Below are positions 1 to 4,553 of a stretch of DNA of 4,553 nt, one piece after another. Both the position numbers and the translations under genes were made by a program. Source of the DNA: a virus (lineage: Duplodnaviria > Heunggongvirae > Uroviricota > Caudoviricetes); IMG/VR virus record IMGVR_UViG_2531839239_000019; one strand, written 5' to 3'. Under the pieces are notes generated by a model that was not told where the DNA came from, searched no databases, and worked only from the letters and a program-made list of their open reading frames with translations. How positions within the stretch are numbered: position 1 is the first letter of the stretch; each line of letters begins with the position of its first letter.

Positions 1-204
1 TATGTTTTTTATAATTTTATTTTATTAAATTTAAATGCATTAGTAATGGCTATTCTATATAGCAATATAAGAACTGTTACAAAAAAAGGGGGGGCAATTA
101 CAGGTAGTTATGGATGATGAGTGAAACAGATATTGGAGAACCGGGGAATGAATGATGTCTGAGTCTTATATATCAGAACTCCTTCGCTGTCGCTGGGGGC
201 TCCT

Positions 205-978
205 GTGCTTATGTCGTTTCCCCGATTCGGTTTTGAACGATTACCGAATGTTGAAGAATTATGCCAAAATATAGAAAGGATTTACTGCATGAATACCCAA
301 TATTTACAGTATGTTCGTGAGCAACTTATGGCAGCTACTGCTGACTTGAACGGAGCAACGAAAGGCCAGCTCGAAGCCTGGCAGGAGCATGCACAATTTG
401 ATACTGGTACATACAAACGAAAGAAGCCGCGCATTCTGGATGAGGTAACTGGCAGGATGATTACGCTGGATAATCCGCCGATTTCCGGTAAGCAGTCGTA
501 CGCAAAAGGTTCATCCATTGCACTGGTCAGCCAGGTTGAGTTCTCAACCTCGTCATGGCGCCGCGCGGTTCTGTCTCTCGAAGAACATCAGAAAGCGTGG
601 TTGCTGTGGAGTTACAGCGAAAGTGTTCGCTGGGAACATCAGGTCACCATAACGCAGTGGGCATGGAGCGAGTTTAAGACTCTGTTGGGTACCAGGAAAA
701 TTGCAGGTAAGACACTGGAACGTTTGAAGAAGTTGATCTGGCTGGCGGCACAGGATGTGAAGAACGAGCTGGCAGGGCGTAAGACCTATGAATACCAGGA
801 GCTGGCATCACTGGTGGGAGTGACATCAAAAAACTGGTCTGAGACATTTACTGAACGCTGGGTTGCAATGAAACACATTTTTCTACAGCTTGATAGCCAA
901 GCTTTATTGCTTTTAACGAAAACACGTTCAAAACAAAAGACCACATTTTCACAGCAAGATATTGCAAAACTGGATTAA
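205..978 (+). CDS. Putative late-gene antiterminator (Q-like; not lambda-type Q)
   Basis: 257-aa ORF ending about 310 bp upstream of the holin, with terminator-like hairpins in between; this is the position Q occupies in lambdoid phages. The sequence does not resemble lambda Q as I recall it; the size fits the larger roughly 250-aa Q family (e.g. Qin QuuQ). The ORF opens with GTG at 205; the ATG at 211 (GGGGG at 195-199 upstream) is an alternative start. Assignment is positional plus size only. Confidence 0.5.
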   Translation: MLMSFPRFGFERLPNVEELCQNIERIYCMNTQYLQYVREQLMAATADLNGATKGQLEAWQEHAQFDTGTYKRKKPRILDEVTGRMITLDNPPISGKQSYAKGSSIALVSQVEFSTSSWRRAVLSLEEHQKAWLLWSYSESVRWEHQVTITQWAWSEFKTLLGTRKIAGKTLERLKKLIWLAAQDVKNELAGRKTYEYQELASLVGVTSKNWSETFTERWVAMKHIFLQLDSQALLLLTKTRSKQKTTFSQQDIAKLD

Positions 979-1045
979 AAATCATATATTTTATGTAAAT
1001 CTGATATTTTGCCAATGTTGTACGCACTGGCAGTAATCCAAATTC

Positions 1046-1080
1046 AAGCCCGAGGTTTAAAGCCTTGGGCTTTTCTGTTT
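1046..1080 (+). terminator. Hairpin plus U-rich tract (terminator-like element 1, Q-S intergenic)
   Basis: aagcccgagg (1046-1055) pairs with ccttgggctt (1063-1072), a 10-bp stem with one G-U pair and a 7-nt loop, followed by ttctgttt (1073-1080). Confidence 0.35.
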
Positions 1081-1159
1081 CTGAACGGTGAGTAGCCTTC
1101 CAACCTACCCCAGCCAGGGGGTCTTCAGCTGTTGAGTTGATATTGCTTAGCCCTCTGTT

Positions 1160-1185
1160 GCCAGCTACATGCTGGCTTTTTTATT
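1160..1185 (+). terminator. Intrinsic terminator, candidate tR' equivalent upstream of the lysis genes
   Basis: gccagc (1160-1165), loop tacat, gctggc (1171-1176), then a T6 run (1177-1182). GC-rich stem plus T-tract, about 105 bp upstream of the holin start, matching the lambdoid pR'-tR'-S layout. Confidence 0.55.
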
Positions 1186-1287
1186 CCAGGCTTGTGGGGA
1201 GCATCAACTCCGTGCTTTGTCGTTAAATTACCCCGTGAGCCTGATTTCTGACATTTAACGTCCCGGCCTTTTGTCGGCGGCGAAACA

Positions 1288-1605
1288 TTGGCTATTCATA
1301 TGCACGAAAAAGAGAGCCTTGCCGGAGCGTTCTGGCTCGTTTTGCTGATCATCGCAGGTTGGGGCGGTCTGGTCCGCTACCTGATAGATGTGAAGCAGAG
1401 TAAAGCAACGTGGAGTTGGATAAATGCTCTGGCTCAAATAGTGGTATCAGGATTCACCGGTGTTATTGGTGGCCTGATCAGCATCGAAAGTGGATTCAGT
1501 ATTTACATGATTCTCGCGACAGCGGGGATTAGTGGTGCGATGGGTTCGGTTGCACTGACGTACTTCTGGGAACGACTGACAGGGGTGAAAAATGCAAAAT
1601 CTTAA
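1288..1605 (+). CDS. Holin (class I-like, three predicted transmembrane segments)
   Basis: 101-105 aa with three hydrophobic stretches (about residues 11-29, 43-65, 69-94) and a charged C-terminal tail ([11 protein letters not shown]). Its 3' end overlaps the endolysin start by 14 nt. The ORF begins at TTG 1288; an ATG lies at 1300. Not lambda S by sequence, as far as I can recall. Confidence 0.75.
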   Translation: MAIHMHEKESLAGAFWLVLLIIAGWGGLVRYLIDVKQSKATWSWINALAQIVVSGFTGVIGGLISIESGFSIYMILATAGISGAMGSVALTYFWERLTGVKNAKS

Positions 1606-2068
1606 TCCTCAGCGTAAAGCCTTCCTCGATATGTTGGCGTGGTCAGAAGGAACGGATAACGGGCGACAACCGACACGTAACCACGGTTATGATGTTATTG
1701 TTGGCGGCGAACTGTTTACTGATTACTCCGATCACCCTCGCAAACTTGTCACGCTACACCCCAAACTCAAATCAACAGCCGCCGGACGTTATCAGCTTCT
1801 TTCACGCTGGTGGGATGCTTACCGTAAACAGCTTGGTTTGAAAGACTTCTCCCCCAAAAGCCAGGACGCAGTGGCATTGCAGCAGATTAAAGAGCGTGGT
1901 GCTTTACCTATGATTGATCGCGGTGATATCCGTCAGGCAATCGACCGTTGCAGTAATATCTGGGCTTCACTGCCGGGCGCTGGTTATGGTCAGTTCGAGC
2001 ATAAGGCTGACAGCCTGATTGCAAAATTCAAAGAAGCTGGCGGAACGGTCAGAGAGAGTGAGGTATGA
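1592..2068 (+). CDS. R: Endolysin, lambda R-type lytic transglycosylase
   Basis: 158 aa. The translation (…[20 protein letters not shown]…[24 protein letters not shown]…) matches lambda R as I remember it almost throughout, apart from the first few residues. SD AGGGGTG at 1581-1587; start overlaps the holin stop. Confidence 0.93.
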
Positions 2069-2526
2069 GCAGAATAACCGCGATTATCTCCGCTCTGCTC
2101 ATCTGCATCATCGTCTGCCTGTCATGGGCTGTTAATCATTACCGTGATAACGCCATTACCTACAAAGCCCAGCGCGACAAAAATGCCAGAGAACTGAAGC
2201 TGGCGAACGTGGCAATTACTGACATGCAGATGCGTCAGCGTGATGTTGCTGCGCTCGATGCAAAATACACGAAGGAGTTAGCTGATGCGAAAGCTGAAAA
2301 TGATGCTCTGCATGATGATGTTGCCGCTGGTCGTCGTCGGTTGCACATCAAAGCAGTCTGTCAGTCAGTGCGTGAAGCCACCACCGCCTCCGGCGTGGAT
2401 AATGCAGCCTCCCCCCGACTGGCAGACACCGCTGAACGGGATTATTTCACCCTCAGAGAGAGGCTGATCACTATGCAAAAACAACTGGAAGGAACCCAGA
2501 AGTATATTAATGAGCAGTGCAGATAG
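2065..2526 (+). CDS. Rz: Rz, inner-membrane spanin subunit (i-spanin)
   Basis: 153 aa with an N-terminal TM segment ([20 protein letters not shown]) and a coiled-coil-like periplasmic part. ATGA start/stop overlap with R (2065-2068). Near-identical to lambda Rz as recalled. Confidence 0.93.
2285..2467 (+). CDS. Rz1: Rz1, outer-membrane lipoprotein spanin subunit (o-spanin), embedded in Rz in the +1 frame
   Basis: 60 aa with a signal peptide and lipobox (LVVVGC) followed by a proline-rich mature part ([15 protein letters not shown]). Strong SD AAGGAG 8 nt upstream of the ATG. Lies entirely inside Rz in a different frame, as in lambda. Confidence 0.9.
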
Positions 2527-2550
2527 AGCTGCCCATATCGATGGGCAGCT
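2527..2550. terminator. Hairpin between the convergent Rz and bor genes (possible bidirectional terminator)
   Basis: agctgcccat (2527-2536), loop atcg, atgggcagct (2541-2550): a perfect 10-bp stem sitting exactly between the Rz stop (2526) and the bor stop (2558). No clean T-tract on either side, so a terminator function is uncertain. Confidence 0.4.
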
Positions 2551-2557
2551 CATGCAA

Positions 2558-2851
2558 TTATTGTGAGCAATACACACGCGCTTCCAGCGGAGTATAAATG
2601 CCTAAAGTAATAAAACCGAGCAATCCATTTACGAATGTTTGCTGGGTTTCTGTTTTAACAACATTTTCTGTGCCGCCACAAATTTTGGCTGCATCGACAG
2701 TTTTCTTCTGCCCAATTCCAGAGACGAAGAAATGGTGGGTGATGGTTTCCTTTGGTGTTACTGCTGCCGGTTTGTTTTGAACAGTAAACGTCTGTTGGGC
2801 ACATCCTGTAATAAGCAGGGCCAGCGCAGTAGCGAGTAGCATTTTTTTCAT
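2558..2851 (-). CDS. bor: Bor outer-membrane lipoprotein (serum-resistance moron)
   Basis: 97 aa starting MKKMLLATALALLITGC with lipobox LITGC. Matches lambda Bor as recalled almost residue for residue. Encoded opposite to the lysis genes. Confidence 0.93.
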   Translation of the reverse strand: MKKMLLATALALLITGCAQQTFTVQNKPAAVTPKETITHHFFVSGIGQKKTVDAAKICGGTENVVKTETQQTFVNGLLGFITLGIYTPLEARVYCSQ

Positions 2852-2984
2852 GGTGTTATTCCCGATGCTTTTTAAAGTTCGCAGAATCGTATGTGTAGAA
2901 AATTAAACAAACCCTAAACAATGAGTTGAAATCTCATATTGTTAATATTTATTAATGTATGTCAGATGCGAAGGATCGTCACTG

Positions 2985-3050
2985 TATTCCCGGATTAACT
3001 ATGTCCGCAGCCCTGACAGGGAAACTCCTCTGCGGGAGTGTCCGGGAATA
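2985..3050. repeat. Nested inverted repeat (potential large stem-loop or protein-binding site) upstream of bor and downstream of the ybcV-like gene
   Basis: Outer arms tattcccgga (2985-2994) and tccgggaata (3041-3050) are a perfect 10-bp inverted repeat; inner arms ccgcag (3005-3010) and ctgcgg (3030-3035); innermost ccctg/caggg (3011-3021). Confidence 0.5.
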
Positions 3051-3142
3051 ATTAATAACGATGCACACAGGGTTTAGCGCGTACACGTATTGCATTATGC
3101 CAACGCCCCGGTGCTGACACGGAAGAAACCGGACGTGATGAT

Positions 3143-3553
3143 TTAGCGTGGAAAGATTTGTGTAGTGTTCTGAATGCTCTCAGTAAATAGTAATGAATTA
3201 TCAAAGGCATAGTAATATCTTTTATGTTCGTGGATATTTGTAACCCATCGGAAAACTCCTGCTTTAGCAAGATTTTCCCTGTATTGCTGAAATGTGATTT
3301 CTCTTGATTTCAACCTATCATAGGACGTTTCTATAAGATGCGTATTTCTTGAGAATTTAACATTCACAACCTTTTTAAGTCCTTTTATTAACACAGTGTT
3401 ATCGTTTTCTAACACAATGTGAATATTATCTGTGGCTAGATAGTAAATATAATGTGAGACATTGTGACGTTTTAGTTCAGAATAAAACAATTCACAGTTT
3501 AAATCTTTTCGCACTTGATCGAATATTTCTTTAAAAATGGCAACCTGAGCCAT
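3143..3553 (-). CDS. ybcV: Uncharacterised DUF1398-family protein (YbcV / lambda p78-like), AT-rich moron
   Basis: The ORF track gives 3143..3676 (177 aa) from a TTG start. I prefer the internal ATG at 3553 ([11 protein letters not shown]…, 136 aa) because it has an SD GGAAGG 8 nt upstream and matches the 136-aa length I recall for E. coli YbcV. About 31% GC versus about 48% in the lysis genes. Confidence 0.7.
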
Positions 3554-3838
3554 TGGTAAAACCTTCCATGTGATACGAGGGCGCGTAGTTTGCATTATCG
3601 TTTTTATCGTTTCAATCTGGTCTGACCTCTTTGTGTTTTGTTGATGATTTATGTCAAATATTAGGAATGTTTTCAATTAATAGTATTGGTTGCGTAACAA
3701 AGTGCGGTCCTGCTGGCATTCTGGAGGGAAATACAACCGACAGATGTATGTAAGGCCAACGTGCTCAAATCTTCATACAGAAAGATTTGAAGTAATATTT
3801 TAACCGCTAGATGAAGAGCAAGCGCATGGAGCGACAAA
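3554..3838. promoter_or_regulatory. Divergent intergenic region between the ybcV-like and ybcW-like genes (putative divergent promoters)
   Basis: 285-bp AT-rich spacer between divergently oriented genes. Contains a tandem tatcgttt repeat (about 3596-3612), a TTGACA hexamer on the minus strand (3653-3658) and a TAATAT hexamer on the plus strand (3793-3798). I could not assemble a convincing -35/-10 pair with correct spacing, so promoters are not located. Confidence 0.3.
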
Positions 3839-4045
3839 ATGAATAAAGAACAATCTGCTGATGATCCCTCCGTGGATCTGATTCGTGTAAAAAATATGCT
3901 TAATAGCACCATTTCTATGAGTTACCCTGATGTTGTAATTGCATGTATAGAACATAAGGTGTCTCTGGAAGCATTCAGGGCAATTGAGGCAGCGTTGGTG
4001 AAGCACGATAATAATATGAAGGATTATTCCCTGGTGGTTGACTGA
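3839..4045 (+). CDS. ybcW: Small uncharacterised protein (YbcW / lambda p79-like)
   Basis: 68 aa, [20 protein letters not shown]…; SD GGAG at 3828-3831, 7 nt before the ATG. Length and sequence fit the DLP12 YbcW protein as I recall it. Divergent from the ybcV-like gene. Confidence 0.7.
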
Positions 4046-4081
4046 TCACCATAACTGCTAATCATTCAAACTACTTAACCT

Positions 4082-4116
4082 GTGACAGAGCCAACACGCA
4101 GTCTGTCACTGTCAGG
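4082..4116. repeat. Inverted repeat / hairpin between the convergent ybcW-like and ylcI-like genes
   Basis: gtgacag (4082-4088) pairs with ctgtcac (4103-4109) around a 14-nt loop; the right arm continues as a tgtcac/tgtcag direct repeat (to 4116). No T-tract follows on either strand. Confidence 0.35.
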
Positions 4117-4209
4117 AAAGTGGTAAAACTGCAACTCAATTACTGCAATGCCCTCGTAATTAAGTGAATTTACAATATCGTCCTGTTCGGAGGGAAGAAC
4201 GCGGGATGT

Positions 4210-4404
4210 TCATTCTTCATCACTTTTAATTGATGTATATGCTCTCTTTTCTGACGTTAGCCTCCGACGGCAGGCTTCAATGACCCAGGCTGAGAAATTT
4301 CCGGACCCTTTTTGATCAAGAGCGATGTTAATTTGTTCAATCATTTGGTTAGGAAAGCGGATGTTGCGGGTTGTTGTTCTGCGGGTTCTGTTCTTCGTTG
4401 ACAT
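4210..4404 (-). CDS. ylcI: Small ribbon-helix-helix-like DNA-binding protein (YlcI / DUF3950-like)
   Basis: 64 aa with a basic N-terminus (MSTKNRTRRTTTRNIRF) followed by a pattern that looks like a beta-strand and two helices (IRFPNQMIEQINIALDQKGSGNFSAWVIEACRRRL), typical of Arc/CopG/MetJ-type RHH proteins. ATG at 4404 with GGGG about 9 nt upstream. Fold assignment is from sequence pattern only. Confidence 0.65.
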   Translation of the reverse strand: MSTKNRTRRTTTRNIRFPNQMIEQINIALDQKGSGNFSAWVIEACRRRLTSEKRAYTSIKSDEE

Positions 4405-4553
4405 GAGGTTGCCCCGTATTCAGTGTCGCTGATTTGTATTGTCTGAAGTTGTTTTTACGTTAAGTTGATGCGGATCAATTAATACGATACCTGCGTCATA
4501 ATTGATTATTTGACGTGGTTTGATGGCGTAGATGCACGTTGTGACATGTAGAT

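Follow-up and report, generated by a model that had tools for sequence, protein, structure and literature searches.

Late-gene control and lysis region of an Escherichia coli O157:H7-type lambdoid prophage: a known module mosaic with a further junction inside Q

The window analysed here is a complete draft contig of 4,553 bp (AOED01000106.1), and its genes and features are collected in Table 1. A late-gene antiterminator gene (Q) was followed by a candidate late promoter, terminators, a holin gene and the endolysin gene R, and the spanin, bor and right-arm genes completed the contig. We are highly confident that the window comes from an O157:H7-type lambdoid prophage of E. coli and covers its functions in late-gene control and lysis; compared with lambda it is a mosaic of modules. 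The open reading frames of the preliminary description (Q-like frame 205-978, holin 1288/1300-1605, R 1592-2068, Rz 2065-2526, Rz1 2285-2467, and bor 2558-2851 on the minus strand) were recovered at the same positions. A tRNA scan of the window detected no tRNA genes; in several related cassettes, unlike here, tRNAs are present between Q and the holin. A minus-strand Rfam match to glmS (14.6 bits, E 0.3) was attributed to chance.

Table 1. Genes, RNA elements, and junctions of the 4,553-bp window
Feature	Position	Strand	Evidence
AT-rich intergenic DNA	1..151		lies between lpxR and ylcG in CP-933K and phage 434
ylcG-family small ORF, 39-40 aa	155..274	+	NCBIfam NF033498, E 7e-13; same name in RefSeq and phage 434
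Q82-family late-gene antiterminator, 229 aa	289..978	+	PF06323; phrog_304; identity to phage 82 Q
59 bp common to the Q alleles of two O157 prophages, within which the hybrid Q crosses over	384..442		mismatch maps
Candidate late promoter PR'	962..990	+	consensus scan: -35 TTGCAA 962-967, 17-bp spacer, -10 TATATT 985-990
Terminated leader RNA, ~80 nt, IsrJ-like	994..1082	+	Rfam isrJ; fold; terminator scan
First tR' hairpin	1046-1072	+	terminator scan; U-tract after hairpin
Second intrinsic terminator	1160..1186	+	terminator scan; GCCAGC-loop-GCTGGC then T6; fold -11.9 kcal/mol
LydA-type holin, 101 aa, three hydrophobic helices	1300..1605	+	PF16083; phrog_785; alternative TTG start 1288
Module junction inside holin/R overlap	1590..1609		R ATG 1592; holin stop 1603-1605
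Lambda R-type soluble endolysin (lytic transglycosylase), 158 aa	1592..2068	+	identity to lambda R; PDB 1AM7
Divergence step against lambda inside R	1900..1955		about 86% upstream to 95-100% downstream; 100-bp bins and mismatch list
Rz (i-spanin)	2065..2526	+	PF03245, E 5e-53; 97.4% aa to lambda
Rz1 (o-spanin lipoprotein)	2285-2467	other frame, inside Rz	PF06085, E 3e-20; 96.7% aa to lambda
bor, serum-resistance lipoprotein	2558..2851	-	PF06291, E 2e-30; 97.9% aa to lambda Bor
ybcV/lambdap78	3143-3553	-	PF07166/PF13132 set, RefSeq names; 97.7% aa to lambda p78
ybcW/lambdap79	3839-4045	+	PF07166/PF13132 set, RefSeq names; 100% aa to lambda p79
ylcI-like DUF3950	4210-4404	-	RefSeq names; PF07166 and PF13132 found across 3143..4404

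The Q protein matched PF06323 over profile positions 1-217 of 220 with a score of 313.5 bits (cut-off 25, E 1e-93), and phrog_304 with E 5e-108. Phage 82 Q (X92588) shared 221 of the 229 residues with it (96.5%; icd-prophage Q 98.3%), and nucleotide identity was 94.7% over 143-978. The gene had the nin/rusA region on one side and the lysis genes on the other, with the candidate promoter, a candidate pause element, and an intrinsic terminator on its 3' side. No similarity to lambda Q was detectable (BLASTP E 4.1), and no Pfam match to the lambda Q family PF03589 was obtained, so Q does lie outside that family, as had been proposed. Lambdoid Q proteins form three mutually unrelated families, Q21 (PF06530), Q-lambda (PF03589), and Q82 (PF06323) (PMC9388147). 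A PDB sequence search with Q returned no solved relative of the Q82 family. Like phage 82 Q (UniProt P13870, PF06323), the window Q is expected to act by sigma70-pause-dependent, NusA-stimulated antitermination; the comparison of its PR' with that of phage 82 is indirect. The rusA-orf45(ylcG)-Q order of phage 82 matches that of the icd-adjacent parent prophage. The window Q differs from phage 82 Q in its first 32 residues, where it has the 434/CP-933K variants M14, A15, N21, and Q32.

Q most likely begins at ATG 289, as in phage 82 Q and RefSeq, and the GTG 205 start given in the preliminary description was not retained. In the resulting 257-aa frame the Pfam match began only at residue 32, the added N-terminal stretch would overlap ylcG, and the MNTQYL start is the one used by phage 82 Q, RefSeq, and the curated phage 434 record. 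Upstream, the intergenic segment 1..151 was 100% identical to the ybhC-adjacent prophage of O157 and 99.3% identical to phage 434; it had no counterpart in the icd-adjacent prophage, where homology begins at 138.

The candidate PR' overlaps the final Q codons. The block TTGCAAAACTGGATT was invariant in seven Q82-type cassettes (E. coli, Salmonella, Enterobacter, and Klebsiella), and a spacer with the sequence AACTGGATT was conserved. An extended -10-like motif, TGATATTTT, was found at 1002-1010 within the conserved initial transcribed region and is a candidate sigma-dependent pause element. PR', the pause element, and the Q-binding site are putative assignments made from consensus and conservation. 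The promoter and initial transcribed block was kept in seven phages of four genera, each with a terminator at about +50 to +80, and this promoter, initial transcribed block, and terminator have no counterpart in lambda. This conservation after Q82-family genes, together with the absence from lambda, supports the earlier proposal that a different Q implies a different late promoter and qut. Homology to 434/CP-933K stopped at 1011, just 3' of the block, and a different region follows there. The leader 994..1082 folded at -27.6 kcal/mol (z -3.5). A third terminator-like hairpin at 1193-1214 was weak (z -1.2) and was left out of the count.

The Rfam isrJ model (RF01393) aligned with 994-1073, its position 1 falling on 994, at 30.4 bits, short of the gathering threshold of 37. 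The leader aligned to the model at its 5' 14 nt and at the terminator, and differed in the middle hairpin. Above-threshold members occurred at the same site 3' of a Q82-type Q in KO-TP1 (63 bits) and ENT1 (72.7 bits); the Gifsy-1 isrJ itself, located after anrP, scored 100.3 bits. IsrJ, encoded by Salmonella Gifsy-1, is an sRNA that binds Hfq and influences the translocation of SPI-1 effectors, and StxS acts in trans from the PR' of Stx phages. We tentatively suggest, as a rather unlikely reading, that the leader is a diverged IsrJ-family member, that IsrJ-type sRNAs are terminated leaders of Q82-type PR' promoters, and that the RNA could be constitutive and possibly trans-acting in O157:H7 lysogens.

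The holin matched holin superfamily III (PF16083) over profile positions 2-78 of 78 with 77.6 bits (cut-off 28.4), and the phrog_785 'holin' profile with E 1e-39. Hydropathy placed its hydrophobic segments at about 7-28, 41-62, and 66-89. It is a small membrane protein with a charged C-terminus and an adjoining endolysin gene, whose start its own gene overlaps by 14 nt. Against lambda S no similarity was detectable (BLASTP E 8.6) and no Pfam match to the S family was obtained, in agreement with its earlier placement outside that family. LydA-type holins of the Klebsiella temperate phages vB_Kpn_RAH1 and ST846-OXA48phi9.2 were 83-85% identical in amino acids and 78-80% in nucleotides, and also lie directly upstream of, and overlap, the endolysin gene. 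The endolysins beside them are unrelated (a 149-aa annotated lysozyme R and a 179-aa lysozyme of the N-acetylmuramidase family), and so are the Q proteins of these phages, which are Cys-rich and 260-269 aa long. The MAKRM dual-start motif, clear in the Klebsiella homologues, is absent here: the window reads TTG-A-I-H-ATG (L-A-I-H-M) at this place and has no upstream ATG, Lys, or Arg. A dual-start (holin/antiholin) motif is not strictly required in the LydA-type family.

Three independent comparisons located the junction between the holin and lambda-type DNA at 1590-1609. In megablast, lambda homology ran from window 1609 (lambda 45510) to 4553 (lambda 48452) at 96.7% identity, lambda 45510 being the first base past the S stop at 45509; blastn moved the start to 1597. 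Homology to the Klebsiella-phage holin genes stopped at 1590-1598, and the R matches in all lambda-S-type phages began at 1609. A recombination junction had been predicted at or near the S/R overlap (about 1592-1610), with the R match starting only after the first codons. Both predictions agree with these results. The N-terminus was as written, and four of the nine amino acid differences from lambda R fall in codons 2-6. Because the junction falls exactly in the gene overlap, the incoming holin dictates the first endolysin codons: as the holin 3' end overlaps R, a holin swap rewrites R codons 2-6 and leaves the remainder of R intact. The best explanation is that the mosaic arose by whole-module exchange at gene boundaries.

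R was 94.3% identical to lambda R in amino acids, two of the differences being C-terminal, and matched the lambda lysozyme structure (PDB 1AM7) with E 2e-100. The catalytic Glu19 was present within LAWSEGT. No hydrophobic N-terminal, signal, or SAR segment was found in R (maximum 19-residue Kyte-Doolittle hydropathy 0.12). Per 100-bp bin, the 5' two-thirds of R showed 76-91% nucleotide identity to lambda, rising to at least 95% from about 1900; over 1606-1900 the closest other allele was that of mEp234 (90%). The near-identity to lambda claimed earlier for R, Rz, Rz1, and Bor holds at the amino acid level (94.3% for R, values for the others in Table 1), and not for the first ~300 nt of R (~86%).

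The Rz1 lipobox was LVVVGC. Past bor, the right arm of lambda/DLP12 type (3143..4404) reached within 50 bp of the cos end, so the lambda-type block R-Rz-Rz1-bor is present as described but does not stop at bor, and continues through ybcV, ybcW, and ylcI to the window end. Altogether the window shares R, Rz, Rz1, bor, lambdap78, lambdap79, and the orf upstream of cos with the lambda right arm (NC_001416 45510-48452; 96.7% in nucleotides, 94-100% in amino acids). The Q, PR'/qut, 6S region, and S of lambda are exchanged for unrelated modules, and R codons 2-6 differ. Pfam families and the start of lambda homology thus confirm the proposed mosaic, in which a non-lambda Q and holin are joined to a lambda-type R-Rz-Rz1-bor block.

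The mosaic is genuine but already known, the same arrangement being present in hundreds of sequenced genomes, and any suggestion of a new mosaic is not supported. At least 80% of the window was found in 316 of 5,426 complete E. coli genomes. In the icd-adjacent O157:H7 prophage (NZ_CP030767.1 1176560-1196200; NZ_CP017251.1, strain 86-24), 384-4553 differed only at 2671 and 2687, two bases of bor, and the gene order was that of the window: rusA-ylcG-Q82-type Q-PR'/terminators-LydA holin-R-Rz/Rz1-bor-ybcV-ybcW-ylcI-nohD. Uniform identity to a single phage, the observation said beforehand to speak against a new mosaic, was thus nearly reached over 384-4553 and did not extend to the left part: 42 positions differed in 138-383, and window 1-137 was absent from that prophage. 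When another bor copy was sought as the source of the 2671/2687 differences, no complete genome carried the exact window bor, and the best match was 99.7%.

Other relatives share parts of the window. Escherichia phage PhiR47_2 (PV340567.1) has the same rusA-ylcG-Q-holin-R-Rz-bor order, with 96.1% identity over 138-2908 and 99.3% over the 5' part of R, which is annotated there as two ORFs; it departs from the window after bor and has other genes before the terminase. Phage 434 (OL657226.1) was 99.3% identical over 1-269. It and CP-933K, the ybhC-adjacent O157:H7 prophage, carry lpxR-ylcG followed by a Q82-family Q with the same PR' core, but their Q body differs from the window Q by 25 aa. Past 1011 they are unrelated to the window and encode a TfpB-like membrane protein, DUF3927, and then a SAR endolysin together with a class II pinholin. 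The sequence comparisons show directly what the genes are, which families they belong to, where the junctions lie, that the promoter and leader are conserved, and in which other genomes the arrangement occurs.

Two junctions were found beyond the one at the holin/R overlap, namely the divergence step at ~1900 inside R and a join at 384-442 inside Q. In the mismatch maps, 1-442 had no mismatch to CP-933K (100% identity) and 384-4553 had two mismatches to the icd-adjacent prophage. The 59 bp common to both maps is the join in all hybrid draft contigs and in the reciprocal chimera. As the window is an entire draft contig, the join arose either as a chimera during assembly or by true exchange between prophages.

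We give an even chance to an assembly chimera, in which AOED01000106.1 would thread from CP-933K-type sequence (lpxR, ylcG, and the 5' end of Q) into the icd-adjacent prophage (from the 3' end of Q onward) through the shared 59 bp and the hybrid Q would be absent from the cell. The window is a complete short contig, and its two parts are identical to two prophages co-resident in one O157:H7 genome. The junction occurred in none of the 5,426 complete genomes, where the best match over 230-640 was the parental allele (95.6%). Only seven contigs, all of 11.5 kb or less, carried the hybrid Q, compared with at least 1000 for the parental Qs, whole chromosomes included; the exact reciprocal hybrid was likewise confined to short contigs, and GCA_000462745.2 contained both reciprocal hybrids. 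One of the seven, KB004214.1, fuses window 1-1596 to the traI 3' end, followed by the traX, finO, and IncFII repA of a plasmid, and SNP clusters near the ends of other contigs suggest run-in to other prophage copies. An artefact is less easily reconciled with the same clean junction in assemblies from 2012 to 2025 and from different projects, and a real inversion would also give both reciprocal products in one assembly. The two prophages are oppositely oriented in several finished O157 genomes (CP017251, CP017669, and CP022689), whereas CP030767 has the pair on the plus strand. The reciprocal allele was also seen on two unbroken Logan contigs and is probably real in those samples, because the contigs would presumably have ended at any fork in the shared sequence.

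A real hybrid Q, whose probability we place slightly below even, would have formed by homologous recombination between the Q genes of the co-resident prophages, giving a CP-933K-left/icd-right arm either reciprocally (inversion) or as a gene-conversion patch. Between the two Q regions, ~870 bp align at 93-94% identity and include the 59-bp perfect core; all four combinations of left and right alleles occur in public data, and independent assemblies show the junction repeatedly. O157 prophages are known to rearrange with one another (Asadulghani et al. 2009, cited in PMC7547250). Recombination in the cell fits less well with a junction seen in no finished genome and on no contig above 11.5 kb, and in one or more of the carrier contigs phage DNA is joined to plasmid DNA, which is most simply a misassembly. 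A topological argument against reciprocal exchange, that direct repeats would lead to a ~614 kb deletion, was set aside, as the relative orientation of the prophages varies among finished O157 genomes. The left 383 bp are of the other prophage type and their join may be an assembly artefact, so the window may not be one physical prophage throughout.

A recent recombinant of lambda itself with a phage-82-like phage is highly improbable. Lambda gives the best phage match to 1609-4553 and phage 82 Q is nearest to Q, but the evidence already contradicts such an origin: lambda identity is only 96.7% overall and falls to ~86% in the 5' 300 nt of R, and the arrangement is found in 316 complete genomes and is fixed in an O157:H7 prophage with the DLP12-like early genes emrE, ybcK, ybcN, ybcO, and rusA.

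The module mosaic suggests a working scheme, drawn from what is established for phage 82 Q and for lambda lysis, in which promoter use, pausing, antitermination, and lysis activity are predicted from the sequence. The Q82-family gene travels with its own putative cis elements: PR', the initial transcribed region with the -10-like pause element, and the tandem terminators (1046-1082, 1160-1186). The LydA-type holin cassette (about 1170-1605) follows, and R begins within its 3' end, which includes the R start and the next few codons; from about 1597-1609 lambda/DLP12-type DNA supplies R, Rz/Rz1, bor, ybcV, ybcW, and ylcI, to near cos. Without Q, PR' would yield only the ~80-nt terminated leader RNA. 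Q would bind at PR' and load onto RNA polymerase while sigma70 keeps the enzyme paused close to the promoter. As Q would make the polymerase terminator-resistant, it could read through the terminators into holin-R-Rz/Rz1. The holin would then permeabilise the inner membrane and release the soluble transglycosylase R, which is consistent with three hydrophobic segments in the holin compared with none in R, and the Rz/Rz1 spanin would disrupt the outer membrane.

The arrangement is a textbook case of lambdoid module exchange, and its value goes little beyond correct annotation. It also carries a caution, as prophage 'mosaics' taken from short draft contigs need read-level confirmation; here two O157:H7 prophages are joined inside Q, perhaps by artefact. 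The sole lead of some wider interest concerns the IsrJ-family sRNAs, which appear to represent leader transcripts from Q82-type late promoters.

The features of the window were taken from the ORF list and family scans (table below). No tRNA genes were detected in a scan of the window.

Annotated features of the window, and the isrJ matches compared with its leader
Feature	Position	Strand	Basis or remark
ylcG-family small ORF	155-274		Family scan
Q82-family antiterminator Q			PF06323, 313.5 bits
Non-coding stretch (320 bp)			Between Q and holin
Leader compared with isrJ matches	994-1082	+	Matches: L024 1234-1308; L026 1251-1324; L027 1233-1309 (sequences with isrJ-family matches)
LydA-type holin	1300-1605		PF16083; possible TTG start at 1288
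R	1592-2068		
Rz	2065-2526		
Rz1	2285-2467		Embedded within Rz
bor	2558-2851	minus	
ybcV/DUF1398	3143-3553	minus	
ybcW	3839-4045		
DUF3950/ylcI-like gene	4210-4404	minus	

In a megablast search of 50,697 phage records, the top match was lambda (window 1609-4553 against lambda 45510-48452, 96.7%). In lambda, R starts at 45493 and S ends at 45509, so the homology starts at the first base past the S stop; a patchy blastn match reached back to 1597. R showed 94.3% amino acid identity to lambda, with nine differences, four in codons 2-6 and two at the C-terminus. Rz, Rz1, and Bor showed identities of 97.4%, 96.7%, and 97.9%, and lambdap78 and lambdap79 of 97.7% and 100%, respectively. Q against lambda Q, and the holin against lambda S, gave no significant alignment. 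The preliminary description, which called R, Rz, Rz1, and Bor lambda-like and Q and the holin not, is therefore borne out, as is the junction it placed at about 1592-1610, since three independent comparisons converge on one 20-base interval. First, lambda homology begins at 1597/1609. Second, the nucleotide homology of Klebsiella temperate phages to the window stops at 1590-1598; these phages carry a holin 83-85% identical to the window's beside unrelated Q genes and two unrelated endolysins, one of 149 aa annotated as lysozyme R and the other a 179-aa lysozyme of the N-acetylmuramidase family. Third, all lambda-S-type phage R alleles (lambda, mEp234, HK620, CUS-3, and others) start matching at 1609. 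The left end of the holin module lies where Klebsiella homology starts, at about 1170-1274. The R start codon (1592) is within the 3' end of the holin (stop at 1603-1605), so the holin cassette carries its own version of R codons 1-6, which accounts for the R N-terminus MQNLNP in place of lambda MVEINN.

Nucleotide identity of R to lambda per 100 bp was 76, 91, and 88% across 1597-1896 and 95-100% beyond. A step was thus observed at 1900-1955 inside R, from ~86% over 1609-1896 to 95-100% from 1897, and strictly lambda-like DNA starts only at ~1900, within R. In the phage collection the nearest other allele over 1606-1900 was that of mEp234 at 90%, with lambda at ~86%. On sequence comparison, the 5' part of R is a distinct allele, and R a mosaic of this diverged part and a lambda-like 3' part.

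The N-terminus of R lacked a hydrophobic segment (19-residue hydropathy at most 0.12); R kept Glu19 and matched lambda lysozyme 1AM7 (E 2e-100). R would therefore be a soluble cytoplasmic endolysin needing a hole-forming holin. The holin showed three hydrophobic segments and a charged C-terminus, a topology that would be lambda-S-like despite no sequence similarity. Its Klebsiella homologues begin with MAKRM, the classic dual-start motif, whereas the window holin has TTG-A-I-H-ATG at 1288-1302, reading (TTG)L-A-I-H-M. The dual-start, positively charged antiholin motif thus seems lost in the E. coli version, and antiholin control may be absent or different.

Three unrelated Q families are known, Q21 (PF06530), Q-lambda (PF03589), and Q82 (PF06323) (PMC9388147), and the window Q belongs to the third, with 96.5% identity to phage 82 Q. 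The 257-aa ORF first assigned to it (205-978, starting at GTG) is probably over-extended by 84 nt. ATG 289 is the preferred start, as the PF06323 match begins at residue 32 of that ORF and the resulting MNTQYL start is used by phage 82 Q (X92588), RefSeq, and the curated phage 434 record. Phage 82 Q loads at a QBE and a sigma70-dependent pause at 82 PR', helped by NusA (PMC4914094). A sequence search of the PDB gave no solved Q82-family structure.

A candidate sigma70-type promoter lies across the end of Q (TTGCAA 962-967, 17-bp spacer, TATATT 985-990). Seven Q82-type cassettes were aligned: the window, phage 82 (Q end only), 434, Gifsy-1, PPompW, Enterobacter ENT1, and Klebsiella KO-TP1. They share a block with the consensus TTGCAAAACTGGATTrAAA..CATATATTTyATGyAAATCTGATAT, in which TTGCAAAA and TGGATT are invariant in all seven. 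The block runs from the -35 through the entire spacer and the -10 to an extended -10-like element, TGaTAT, at 1002-1010. This last element is a candidate for the sigma-dependent pause, and Q may bind in the conserved spacer and the initial transcribed region. In every cassette a variable spacer and then an intrinsic terminator at about +50 to +80 follow 3' of the block. In the window the first terminator (1046-1072 plus a U-tract) has a 12-bp stem, with a leader fold of -27.6 kcal/mol (z -3.5), and the second is at 1160-1176 plus T6. Homology to 434/CP-933K covers 1-1011 and ends just 3' of the block, marking the right end of the Q module. The promoter block, leader, and terminators of this module support the earlier expectation that a different Q brings a different late promoter and qut specificity.

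Further observations were made around PR'. The first tR' hairpin (1040-1074) was 94% identical to a hairpin of Klebsiella phage vB_Kpn_RAH1 (L022 3192-3225) located 3' of an unrelated Q; the tR' terminator and the Q type seem to be exchanged independently. On the minus strand, a perfect TTGCN6TTGC, the lambda CII-binding consensus, overlaps the PR' -35 at 954-967 (one match against 0.35 expected, not significant alone); in the curated record of phage 434 this site is labelled paQ, with a CII site. A strong sigma70-like match (TTGGCA, 16 bp, TAAAAT; 10/12) on the minus strand at 988-1015 is aimed back into Q and faces the PR' initial transcribed region.

At least 80% of the window was present in 316 of 5,426 complete E. 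coli genomes, and the top matches were O157:H7 strains (99.0% over 138-4553). From 384 to 4553 the window departs from the O157:H7 prophage adjacent to icd (NZ_CP030767.1; likewise in strain 86-24) only at 2671 and 2687; the mismatch map gave 44 differences in all, all but these two at 142-383. In this icd prophage the early genes are DLP12-like (emrE, ybcK, ybcN, ninE, ybcO, rusA, ylcG), and the genes for packaging and the head resemble those of lambda. The Q-holin-R-Rz-bor order recurs in phage PhiR47_2, at 96% identity; none of the 50,697 phage records covered 80% of the window. The preliminary description was accurate in observation and sound in interpretation, but the mosaic is not a new arrangement: it is an ordinary, classic lambdoid module mosaic, already sequenced in this O157:H7 prophage and hundreds of genomes. 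Positions 2671 and 2687, the sole differences over 4.2 kb, both lie in bor; the exact window bor sequence was in no complete E. coli genome, and the two changes were missing from two other draft contigs carrying the hybrid Q. In many O157:H7 chromosomes the homologous region is 5,729 bp in two pieces, due to an inserted IS1203 (IS3-family); the window version is uninterrupted.

A second junction lies inside Q. Positions 1-442 were 100% identical to another O157:H7 prophage, CP-933K at ybhC, which carries lpxR-ylcG-Q and then a late region unrelated to the window's. The two parental Q alleles share 59 bp perfectly at 384-442, where the window changes parent, giving a hybrid Q with residues 1-32 of 434/CP-933K type and 52-229 of 82/icd type. 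In draft assembly GCA_000335295.2 the window makes up contig AOED01000106.1 from end to end, and an assembly chimera of two O157 prophages and a real exchange between them are about equally probable. The hybrid protein occurred in 7 contigs, all ≤11.5 kb, against at least 1000 contigs, including whole chromosomes, for each parental protein, and the junction was in no complete genome (best match over 230-640, the parental allele at 95.6%); both results argue for a chimera. The exact reciprocal hybrid, on 9 short contigs and likewise in no complete genome, and the presence of both forms in GCA_000462745.2 point the same way; however, several finished O157 genomes carry CP-933K-type and icd prophages in opposite relative orientation, which means that both products would be expected from a real inversion too. 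Phage DNA is also joined to plasmid DNA in KB004214.1 (GCA_000316725.2; L007 2639/2640), where window 1-1596, 5 nt into R, is fused gaplessly to the traI 3' end, and traX, finO, and IncFII repA of an F-type plasmid come next. The join is probably a misassembly and likewise favours a chimera. Against a chimera, the junction turns up repeatedly in assemblies dated 2012 through 2025, and the reciprocal allele lies on unbroken Logan contigs; as a fork at the common stretch would presumably break contigs, those samples probably contain a true reciprocal allele.

Two points are worth passing on. One is that the contig may be chimeric; the other is a link to IsrJ, a 74-nt Hfq-associated sRNA affecting SPI-1 effector translocation (PMC2330248). 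The Rfam isrJ model matched 994-1073 at 30.4 bits, below its threshold of 37; model position 1 falls on 994, a few bases 3' of the PR' -10. Positions 961-1007 were 91.5% identical to Gifsy-1 DNA directly upstream of isrJ, and Gifsy-1 has an above-threshold match downstream of the same promoter block. Klebsiella KO-TP1 gave an above-threshold match (63 bits) directly 3' of its annotated Q82-family Q, and Enterobacter ENT1 (an unannotated record) gave 72.7 bits at the corresponding position. Antiterminated phage promoters have been proposed as a source of sRNAs in the StxS paper, which names IsrK and a phage 82 short RNA but not IsrJ (PMC7547250). From the position of these matches, 3' of Q82-type Q genes or the promoter block, Q82-type late operons appear to give rise to IsrJ as their terminated leader RNA.
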